From assembly GCA_030680695.1 (NCBI GenBank), contig JAUXUT010000149.1, positions 469,768 to 533,767 of the forward strand: a stretch of DNA of 64,000 nt. Direction: 5' to 3'. A model generated the notes under the pieces. The model saw only the letters and a program-made list of their open reading frames with translations, ran no database searches and was not told where the DNA came from. Positions 18,035 to 19,680 of the stretch are shown piece by piece (position 1 is the stretch's first letter; every line of letters starts with the position of its first letter). The position numbers and the translations under genes are program-made. Source of the stretch: a bacterium. Lineage in GTDB: Bacteria > Patescibacteriota > Minisyncoccia > Phycocordibacterales > UBA6065.

Positions 18035-18175
18035 GAGGCCATATCGCATTCTATTTTGCCTCGTTCTTTTCGCCAGTTCTTCCCTGGCTTCCATGCAATT
18101 TAAGGTGTTTGCAAAACCCATATTAAATATGATCGACTCCGTAAGTTCCCTACCGAAGTAGGAGAACGGTTTTCA

Positions 18176-19680
18176 CTTGAAATAATCCACGAGCAGCTTC
18201 CGCTACCCGTGCCTTGTTACGACTTACTCCCTGTCATTGAGCTCGCCTTAGGCCGCGTGAGCAGACTTCGGGCGCTCCCAACTCCCTTGAGTTGACGGGC
18301 GGTGAGTACAAGACTTGAGAACGTATTCACCTCGGTATAGCTGACCCGAGATTACTAGCAAATCCAGCTTCAAGGAGTCGAGTTGCAGACTCCTATCCGG
18401 ACTAAGACATCCTTTATAACGATTGGCTCAGGGTCTCCCCGTCGCATCGCGTTGTAGATGCCATTGTATCACGTGTGTAGCCCAGGGTATCAGAGGGCCA
18501 TGCTGATCTGGCGTCATCCTCACCTTCCTCCCAGCTCTTTACTCACAATGGACACGCATTACTGCGGATTCATTATGCCCAAAGAGCTGGGCAGTCTCGG
18601 CTGACACTTGTAACAGCCAACGAGGGTTGCGTTCGTTACCCCACTGAAGGGAACAATTCAAATCACGAACTGACGACGACCATGCAGCACCTGCCTAATT
18701 GCCTTGCGGCGACAAACGTTTCTGCTTGTCTTCAACTAGGTTTCTAACCCTGGTAAGGTTCTTCGTTTACCGTCGAATTGAACCACATGATCCTCTGCTT
18801 GTGCAAGTCCCCGTCTATTCCTTTGAGTTTTAACCTTGCGGTCGTACTACCCAGGCGCTTCTCTTAACGCGTTAGCTACGCCACTCAGAGGGTCGATACT
18901 CCAAATAGCTAGAGAAGATCGTTTAGGGCGTGGACTACAGGGGTATCTAATCCCTTTCGCGACCCACGCTTTCATGTCTCAGTGTCAGGAATGCCCCAGT
19001 TACTTGCCTTCGCTTTTGGTGTTCCCCTAGATATCAACGCATTTCACCGCTACACCTAGAGTTCCAGTAACCCCTTGCATCCTCAAGTCTTGCCGTTTCC
19101 TTTGCATGCCCCCGGTTAAGCCGAAGAATTTAACAAAAGACTAACAAGACCACCTACACATCCTTTACGCCCAATGATTCCGGATAACGCTTGAGGCACT
19201 CGTATTACCGCTGCTGCTGGCACGAGTTTAGCAACCTCTTATTCATGAGACGATCAATAAACTTTCTATCTCATAAAAGCAGTTTACGTCCCGAAGGACT
19301 TCATCCTGCACGCGGCGTCGCTCCATCAGACTTTCGTCCATTGTGGAAGATTCTCGACTGCAGCCACCCGTAGGTGTATGGGCCGTGTCTCAGTCCCATC
19401 GGTGGGGGTCACCCTCTCAGGTCCCCTAGGCGTCATAGCCTTGGTAAGCCGTTACCTTACCAACTAGCTGATACCGAGCAGGCCGATTTCCAAGCGATAA
19501 ATCTTTACCCCGGAGGGACTATCAAGTATTACCCCGTCTTTCGACGAGCTGTTCTTGACTTGGAAGTTCGTACCTACTTATTACTACCTCGTCTGCCGGT
19601 TGCCTTGCGGCCCCCTTGACTTGCATGCCTTATCCACGCCGCCAGCGTTCATCCTGAGCTAGGATCAAACTCTTGTTATA
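18176..19680 (-). rRNA. 16S ribosomal RNA (3' tail lacks canonical CCUCC anti-SD)
   Basis: 5' end: revcomp of 19654-19673 = AGAGTTTGATCCTAGCTCAG; 3' region contains AAGTCGTAACAAGG (revcomp of 18212-18225) and helix-45 CACGGGUAGC-GGAA-GCUGCUCGUG followed by GGAUUAUUUCAAG; length ~1.5 kb. Confidence 0.9.

Follow-up and report, generated by a model that had tools for sequence, protein, structure and literature searches.

The 16S rRNA gene and its 3′ tail

The window analysed here, a stretch of contig JAUXUT010000149.1 of 64,000 nucleotides (nt) in all, carries on its minus strand a full-length 16S ribosomal RNA (rRNA) gene whose 3′ tail reads UUUCA in place of CCUCC, the core of the anti-Shine–Dalgarno (anti-SD) sequence that base-pairs with Shine–Dalgarno (SD) sites in messenger RNAs (mRNAs). 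CCUCC is described as nearly invariant across bacteria, the known exceptions reportedly being mainly Flavobacteriales (PMC13000453). The gene, the helix that precedes its tail and the tail itself lie as follows.

18175–19680, minus strand: 16S rRNA gene, full length (Rfam RF00177 SSU_rRNA_bacteria, model positions 1–1533, 1330.9 bits)
18211–18188, minus strand: helix 45, CACGGGUAGC-GGAA-GCUGCUCGUG (10/10 pairs standard in the cmscan alignment)
18187–18175, minus strand: 16S 3′ tail, GAUUAUUUCAAGU (covariance alignment against the consensus GAUcACCUCCUUu; canonical form GAUCACCUCCUUA)

Set against a gathering score of 50, the Rfam score makes the gene a member of the bacterial small-subunit (SSU) rRNA family; the covariance model was also re-run on the 3′ part of the 16S alone to show where the alignment ends. 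Helix 45, which a sequence-only reading of this DNA had described as intact, follows directly on AAGUCGUAACAAGG, has standard pairs throughout in the Rfam alignment and is matched by an equal stem in related Paceibacteria loci. The same reading had held that the tail lacks CCUCC, and the Rfam SSU alignment agrees: the pentamer at the anti-SD-equivalent positions (18182–18178) is UUUCA, differing from the consensus by C-to-U transitions at tail positions 4, 6 and 7 and by a C-to-A change at position 10. A canonical tail (CCUCC beginning 5 nt after helix 45, GAUCACCUCC) is not present at this 3′ end, which reads GAUUAUUUCA instead. The lack of an anti-SD in the 16S of this Parcubacteria-type bacterium, a member of the CPR (Candidate Phyla Radiation), has been confirmed as genuine.

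The distribution of the tail was followed in two scans. The first, over one genome per GTDB species, looked for an intact helix 45 frame combined with a pyrimidine-transition tail not ending in CCUCC and returned at least 120 loci; the second, over metagenome contigs, used the window's own helix 45 and tail as the query and added 26 further loci. The window tail, mostly together with the window's helix 45 as well, is common to at least 58 loci (46 distinct tails), and throughout this tail group GAUUAUUUCAA is invariant. Membership was defined by positions 1–10; among the positions that were not selected for, position 11 (A) is invariant and positions 16–17 (AA) are nearly so, and conservation then collapses about 17 nt after helix 45, much as one would expect if the tail is functional and about as long as usual. 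The new tail appears to be fixed across the lineage. Loci of the tail group come from both genome and metagenome collections and from different studies, and are labelled Candidatus Taylorbacteria, Yonathbacteria, Paceibacterota, Parcubacteria or Patescibacteria group; several metagenome-assembled genomes (MAGs) deposited as third-party annotations (TPA) carry the label Saccharibacteria, which we distrust because their helix 45 and tail match the type of this group.

This recurrence bears directly on whether the tail might be an artefact, stemming from a pseudogene copy, from misassembly or from a chimera at the end of a contig. Ribosomal RNA regions from metagenomes are generally error-prone, a consideration with nothing specific to the window; set against it are the full-length, high-scoring Rfam match, the presence of the same tail in at least 58 independent loci from different studies, and the parallel absence of SD motifs (described below), which sequencing error in the ribosomal DNA (rDNA) would not produce. 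Because the tail recurs in so many related loci, we regard an assembly artefact or pseudogene as very unlikely, to the point of giving it next to no weight.

Among the matches listed, the nearest 16S (locus L121) is 90.2% identical along 1887 nt that take in leader and trailer, followed by L045 (Candidatus Taylorbacteria) at 89.3% and L097 at 87.4%; the alignment to the closest 16S continues into the trailer, and the nearest 16S sequences (87–90%) bear the labels Candidatus Taylorbacteria or Paceibacterota. The window further displays two hallmarks of CPR genomes, unlinked 16S and 23S genes and a group I intron within the 23S. On this evidence the source is placed within the Patescibacteria (CPR), of Paceibacteria/Parcubacteria type and close to Candidatus Taylorbacteria. 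As to the layout of the rRNA genes, the 23S–5S pair (45147–48709) lies 26 kb from the 16S, with the 23S group I intron at 45794–46098 (63.8 bits), and a transfer RNA (tRNA) gene, tRNA-Ile(GAU), follows the 16S at a distance of about 900 nt downstream, after its own promoter and small open reading frames (ORFs) and not in a spacer.

Tails of other types were also met in the scans. Other Patescibacteria tails are degenerate too, mostly by C-to-U change (GAUCAUUUUUUUAAAA in Staskawiczbacteria and GAUCAUCUUUAAAGGAUG in Minisyncoccia, with further degenerate CPR cores GAUCACUUCUUAUCUAGAGAA, Yanofskybacteria-type, and GAUCACCUCAUUUAGAGG; loci L008–L120), and in each of these other CPR tail classes the bases straight after the tail tend to complement it. 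Outside the Flavobacteriales, the tails of Rhodothermales and Rubricoccaceae (Rubrivirga) read GAUYACCUCU or GAUCACCUCA, that is, CCUCU/CCUCA variants of the anti-SD, and are followed by AGAG-containing complements (L002, L007, L013, L018, L019, L059, L064, L080, L087, L107).

Translation starts in the window

SD sites were sought upstream of a main set of 40 ORFs that start with ATG and encode at least 120 amino acids (aa). Between positions −25 and −4 of these, GGAGG is found in 0/40, GGAG in 1/40 and GAGG in 2/40, and a canonical tail is predicted to form weaker duplexes at starts than at random genomic positions (−3.08 versus −4.53 kcal/mol). A second, independent script recovered an SD core (GGAG, GAGG or AGGA) within −20 to −4 of 6% of 52 window ORFs, the control zone giving 10%; applied to 49 kb of E. 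coli K-12 as a positive control, it returned 61% against 7% in the control zone, and among 160 ORFs from related loci 14% against 9%. (E. coli was chosen since the scan had picked non-canonical tails, so that the fetched loci offered no control with a canonical anti-SD.) SD sites are absent from the mRNAs of the window, not just weak, and the earlier statement that its starts have no GGAGG-like element extends to the window-wide scan. With anti-SD and SD both lacking, start selection must be independent of SD pairing.

The initiation regions do have features of their own. Across the 40 genes they are A/T-rich and depleted in G, with A at −14 in 25 genes (62%), at −13 in 19 (48%) and at −3 in 24 (60%), and with a further peak at −9. 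Hexamers resembling a −10 promoter box end 7–12 nt before the ATG of 9/40 genes (about 0.7 expected), so near that many first genes would have leaders of 0–5 nt; the sequence-only reading's description of several genes as near-leaderless is in keeping with this count. Same-strand neighbours overlap or lie at most 10 nt apart in 15 of 39 pairs. From these features we infer three SD-independent routes to initiation: at unstructured, A-rich and G-poor regions with A at −14, −13 and −3; on transcripts that would be leaderless or have very short leaders (2–5 nt); and through tight coupling of stop and start within operons. One promoter of this kind is a perfect TTGACA-16-TATAAT, separated by 9 nt from the ATG at 17938; this consensus promoter (TTGACA-16-TG-TATAAT, 17948–17975) stands directly after the 16S terminator and ahead of an 83-aa ORF (17687–17938) without a Pfam match.

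It is also conceivable that the SD/anti-SD pair has been re-specified, the U-rich tail UUAUUUCAA now pairing with A-rich upstream elements (GAAAUAAU-type, or an A-tract at −14 to −9). The tail is still pyrimidine-rich and strictly conserved, the initiation regions are rich in A, copA (23265) carries GAAAAUAAUC just upstream, and some Flavobacteriales with an altered anti-SD keep a compensating SD in rpsU (PMC13000453). The measurements made at the starts speak otherwise. Substrings complementary to the tail show no real excess over composition-matched shuffles (35% versus 30% for k=5, 15% versus 10% for k=6), duplex energies with the window tail are not better at starts (−2.89) than in shuffles (−3.17), and an extended complement of the tail, with up to two mismatches allowed, has 6 hits in the window where 7.8 are expected, all of them inside ORFs or rDNA and none in an initiation region of the window. 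A substitute SD that would pair with the altered tail was rejected on these grounds, since k-mers, duplex energies and the extended pattern all sit at the level of composition; in the study of Amin et al., moreover, variant anti-SDs had no variant SD to match them (PMC6107228). We consider re-specification unlikely.

An unbiased k-mer test singled out TTAA as the sole 4-mer enriched upstream of starts (18/40 genes versus 7.9 in shuffles), with statistics that are borderline after multiple testing. Its position peak is sharp—6 genes have TTAA beginning at −16, and 11/40 have it begin within −19 to −14—and at −16 its TAA forms an in-frame stop five codons ahead of the ATG. The gene starts concerned (23265–33019 and 37919) belong mostly to internal genes of one operon-rich island of low guanine–cytosine (GC) content, and in 160 genes of relatives the enrichment is only broad (−25 to −10). 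TTAA was rejected as a tail-pairing signal, since it does not complement the tail, is concentrated in that one island and has no more than the broad enrichment in relatives. A bolder proposal would have the invariant tail GAUUAUUUCAAGUGAAA, perhaps with a structured trailer retained on the 30S, act as a new start-selecting module that reads A/U-rich upstream elements; UUAA, seen in the low-GC island 16 nt ahead of the ATG, is one candidate element for such a replaced recognition, to which we attach a slight probability.

The island itself is a block of lower GC (20000–35650, 43–47% versus 49–54% in its flanks) that carries a metal-handling operon (an HMA-domain P-type ATPase and DsbD-like, cupredoxin, ZIP, YibE/F and ferric-reductase-like proteins). 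At its end lie a LOOT RNA (33091–33205, 83 bits), an OB-fold protein of tRNA_anti-like type and a large serine recombinase (33963–35615) overlapping tRNA-Leu(CAG) (35566–35648), and the block looks like a mobile island integrated at tRNA-Leu.

The probable pre-16S trailer and the downstream CCUCC

The roughly 130 nt that follow the tail are conserved among relatives, as seen in alignments A1 and A2. The features of this trailer, and of the leader and transcription signals that frame the 16S, are given below in transcript order from the tail, followed by those upstream of the gene.

18171–18182, minus strand: possible mini-hairpin UUUC-AAGU-GAAA, spanning tail bases and the start of the trailer (RNAalifold on A2)
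18139–18169, minus strand: trailer hairpin 1, outer stem CCG/CGG and inner stem with a UUCG loop (single-sequence folds; A1)
18131–18140, minus strand: conserved box GGAGUCGAUC, core GUCGAU (GTCGAT in 26/27 A2 rows)
18119–18131, minus strand: trailer hairpin 2, CAUAU-UUA-AUAUG (2/3 tested pairs change on both sides)
18094–18113, minus strand: trailer hairpin 3, UGCAA-ACACCUUAAA-UUGCA (5/5 pairs with double-sided changes, 27 sequences)
18072–18088, minus strand: trailer hairpin 4, GCCAG-GGAAGAA-CUGGC, with conserved loop GGGAAGAAC (4/5 pairs with double-sided changes)
18040–18066, minus strand: 3′ half of the leader–trailer helix, GAACGAGGCAAAAUAGAAUGCGAUAUG (pairs at 26/27 positions with leader 19757–19731)
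18034–18038, minus strand: CCUCC, just past the leader–trailer helix and directly before the terminator (18033–18006)
18006–18033, minus strand: intrinsic terminator AAAAAACCGCUC-AACA-GAGCGGUUUUUU (sequence and minimum-free-energy (MFE) fold; equivalent in relatives)
19731–19757, minus strand: 5′ half of the leader–trailer helix, CAUAUCGCGGUCUGUUUUGUCUCGUUC (complementarity to the trailer)
20078–20105, minus strand: promoter-like site for the 16S, TTGACC-16-TATAAT (11/12 consensus positions)

The trailer hairpins were assessed on a hand-drawn structure (mini-hairpin, hairpins 2–4 and a 3-base-pair (bp) closing stem) over 27 sequences, because RNAalifold on MAFFT alignments under-called hairpins 1–3 through register shifts. 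In this structure 86.9% of cells are paired, compared with 75.5% after shuffling and 34–54% in slid-register controls, and 62 cells carry double changes where shuffles average 20.7 (0/500 shuffles reach 62). Hairpin 1 stood outside this column-wise count; it appears in most single-sequence folds of 27 relatives, whose sequences differ, and has compensatory pairs in A1. The mini-hairpin is invariant within the tail group and so carries no covariation evidence. Across CPR tail classes, the tail and the bases next to it form a stem of at least 4 bp in 82% of cases versus 66% when permuted (standard deviation 4.5, best shuffle 81%), although mean stem length barely differs from the permuted value and the sequences are of low complexity and phylogenetically related; the signal for a covarying hairpin of the tail with its following bases across the CPR is modest and no more than suggestive. 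The box, whose single A2 row without GTCGAT (L100) is misaligned there, belongs to a wider pattern in that many CPR trailers, whatever their tail class, have GUCGAY 41–62 nt from where the tail begins. By G–U pairs in many MFE folds, GGAGUCGAUC can pair with the tail segment GAUUAUUUC, so that a tail–box pairing is possible in these models; the GGAG part of the box varies, and GUCGAY shows no covariation with tail class. An Rfam search of the trailer gave weak terminator-like hits, with no family and no intron.

Enclosing these elements is the leader–trailer helix (27 nt, 26 bp), which changes compensatorily in relatives (UGUUCCGUUC/GAACGGAACA, UGUCUCGUC/GACGAGGCA and UGUCCCGUC/AACGGGGCA) and whose predicted duplex free energy is −78, compared with −55 for shuffled trailers. 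It has what appears to be the architecture of a pre-16S processing helix. The promoter-like site at 20105–20078 implies a leader of about 390 nt. In E. coli, the 3′ strand of the processing stem lies 33 nt past the 16S 3′ end. The window resembles the RNase III stem of the E. coli pre-16S in that a long leader–trailer helix encloses the 16S and varies compensatorily across species; it differs in that its 3′ strand lies about 108 nt past the 16S 3′ end of the model, with four conserved hairpins in between. The roughly 130 nt would then be a pre-rRNA trailer—four covarying hairpins and the GUCGAU box inside the leader–trailer helix, followed by the terminator—and the helix would be of the type that RNase III cuts in other bacteria, the mature 16S probably ending about 13–17 nt after helix 45. 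Contig ends in metagenomes, considered as a proxy for mature RNA ends, gave no information, as the contigs run through the tail.

Alternatively, the mature 16S might be extended at its 3′ end by the trailer, whole or in part, with an mRNA- or factor-binding role for the added sequence. The hairpins, the loops (GGGAAGAAC and ACCUWAAA) and the GUCGAU box are kept among 16S sequences that are just 85–90% identical, three stable hairpins would impede exonucleolytic trimming, and unusual insertions are known in CPR rRNAs (PMC9297842). Weighed against these are the long leader–trailer helix, which puts the trailer within a classical precursor architecture, the fall of positional conservation about 17 nt after helix 45, as in a normal tail, the commonness of conserved spacer helices in pre-rRNA, and a search upstream of starts that turned up no motif able to pair with the trailer loops. 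We see a very slim chance that the trailer is retained, and a pre-rRNA trailer is the reading we carry forward.

The CCUCC beside the terminator lies 144 nt past the anti-SD-equivalent position. Among the matches listed it occurs within 260 nt in 1 of 57 distinct tail-group trailers, that of the window alone, and in 0 of the 56 others; CCUCC is found window-wide at 0.8 per kb per strand, a frequency at which a single occurrence is nothing unusual. Its absence from the other 56 trailers argues against an anti-SD that was displaced or is spliced in, and its place by the terminator appears coincidental, probably outside the mature rRNA. An excisable element joining GGAU to CCUCC was considered and rejected, there being no Rfam intron in the trailer and no CCUCC in the 56 related trailers. 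Measured against these results, the sequence-only reading of the region holds in outline: both of the hairpins by which it called the ~130 nt highly structured (CCUAC-UUCG-GUAGG and GCCAG-GGAAGAA-CUGGC) are present, with compensatory changes in relatives; CCUCC does abut the terminator, at 144 nt and 18038–18034 in place of the ~135 nt and ~18042 given; and a leader-complementary segment does exist with CCUCC at or beyond the helix base, at 18066–18040 and not at 18060–18073.

A terminator scan also marked helix 45 and the tail GAUUAUUUCA (18188–18211 plus the tail) as resembling an intrinsic terminator, because the tail is now U-rich, and the resemblance is stronger in Staskawiczbacteria-type tails (GAUCAUUUUUUU). 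The conserved leader–trailer helix downstream argues that transcription reads through this point.

Anti-SD loss and SD-independent translation

Loss of the anti-SD in a subgroup of Parcubacteria is already published, and the window is a well-documented example of it, not a discovery. Tsurumaki et al. 2022 (RNA 28:1041, PMC9297842) detected an anti-SD motif in only 48% of Parcubacteria, and found that lineages lacking it overlap the group lacking uL1 and that bS21 is often absent. The window shares with that subgroup its CPR lineage, the lack of CCUCCU after helix 45, the unlinked 16S and 23S and the group I intron in the 23S; the paper, for its part, reports motif detection without the replacement sequence, an SD analysis of genes or a trailer analysis. 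We consider it highly probable that the window encodes a functional 16S with a replaced and fixed tail, that the mRNAs are SD-free and their starts selected independently of SD, and that a pre-rRNA trailer follows in which CCUCC occurs by chance. The anti-SD core would have been replaced mostly by C-to-U transitions (GAUCACCUCCUUA to GAUUAUUUCAAGU) and fixed across the lineage, whose mRNAs would carry no SD.

Several points weigh against this account. The strictness with which the new tail is conserved implies some function, and the account leaves it unnamed. Start calling was mechanical, taking in each of the non-overlapping long ORFs the first ATG of its longest form, and the SD census spans 64 kb, so that a few genes with an SD (such as rpsU or prfB in Bacteroidia) may lie outside it. 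Where the mature 16S ends and what becomes of the trailer are predictions from sequence. As to the uL1 loss that Tsurumaki et al. link with loss of the anti-SD, the L1-stalk helices of the 23S are intact, an intact stalk being uninformative as a proxy for uL1 loss, and rplJ–rplL (51609–50631) has no preceding rplK–rplA in the 64-kb window. Upstream of rplJ–rplL (51724–55719), as a separate observation, the window encodes a 923-aa LCAT-like/beta-helix protein and a 405-aa protein with LTD/PKD domains, an arrangement that recurs on a Logan contig from SRR13727517. An exact-match search with the uL10 protein yielded just one 7.6-kb Logan contig, which carries no information on lineage.

Comparison with other systems sets the lineage apart from each of them. 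Organisms without an anti-SD are generally without SD and without a matching variant SD (Amin et al. 2018, PMC6107228, whose exceptions were Flavobacteriales, Mycoplasma and Carsonella). Reduced genomes (Mycoplasma, Carsonella, Blattabacterium; PMC6107228, Lim 2012) and mitochondrial SSU rRNA have, like the window, lost anti-SD and SD together; they are of other lineages, and the window's replacement tail is strongly conserved across species, not variable. The likeness to Bacteroidia (PMC6847099, PMC7797042, PMC9976891) lies in the mRNAs, which have no SD, are enriched in A at about −14 to −11 and at −3, and are depleted in G; in Flavobacterium johnsoniae A is overrepresented at −14 to −11, and A at −3 and −6 are positive determinants (Baez 2019, PMC6847099). 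Bacteroidia, however, keep a CCUCC that is sequestered by bS21/bS18/bS6 and used in rpsU regulation (Jha 2021, PMC7797042; McNutt 2023, PMC9976891), whereas in the window the sequence itself is gone, the genes for bS21, bS18 and bS6 lying outside it. In the sequence of its tail the window resembles Flavobacteriales with an alternative anti-SD (UCUCA or UCUCU), in that the core is altered by C-to-U and C-to-A changes and UUUCA is similar to UCUCA; those lineages retain an extended SD in rpsU that compensates for the change (PMC13000453), while the initiation regions of the window, which does not span rpsU, hold no compensating complement. A further consideration is Era, which recognises GAUCACCUCC and is lost in most CPR (PMC10582724), so that one constraint on the 16S tail is removed.

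Beyond the published one-line observation, the window shows precisely which sequence replaced the core, how well that sequence is conserved and how the trailer is built. A large, species-rich CPR clade with a fixed, different tail and no SD is a natural experiment in SD-free translation. It could shed light on why Bacteroidia keep a hidden anti-SD, on the other roles of a 16S 3′ tail that is conserved despite losing SD pairing, and on pre-16S maturation in organisms mostly without Era. In practical terms, gene callers built on an SD model will misplace starts in such genomes.

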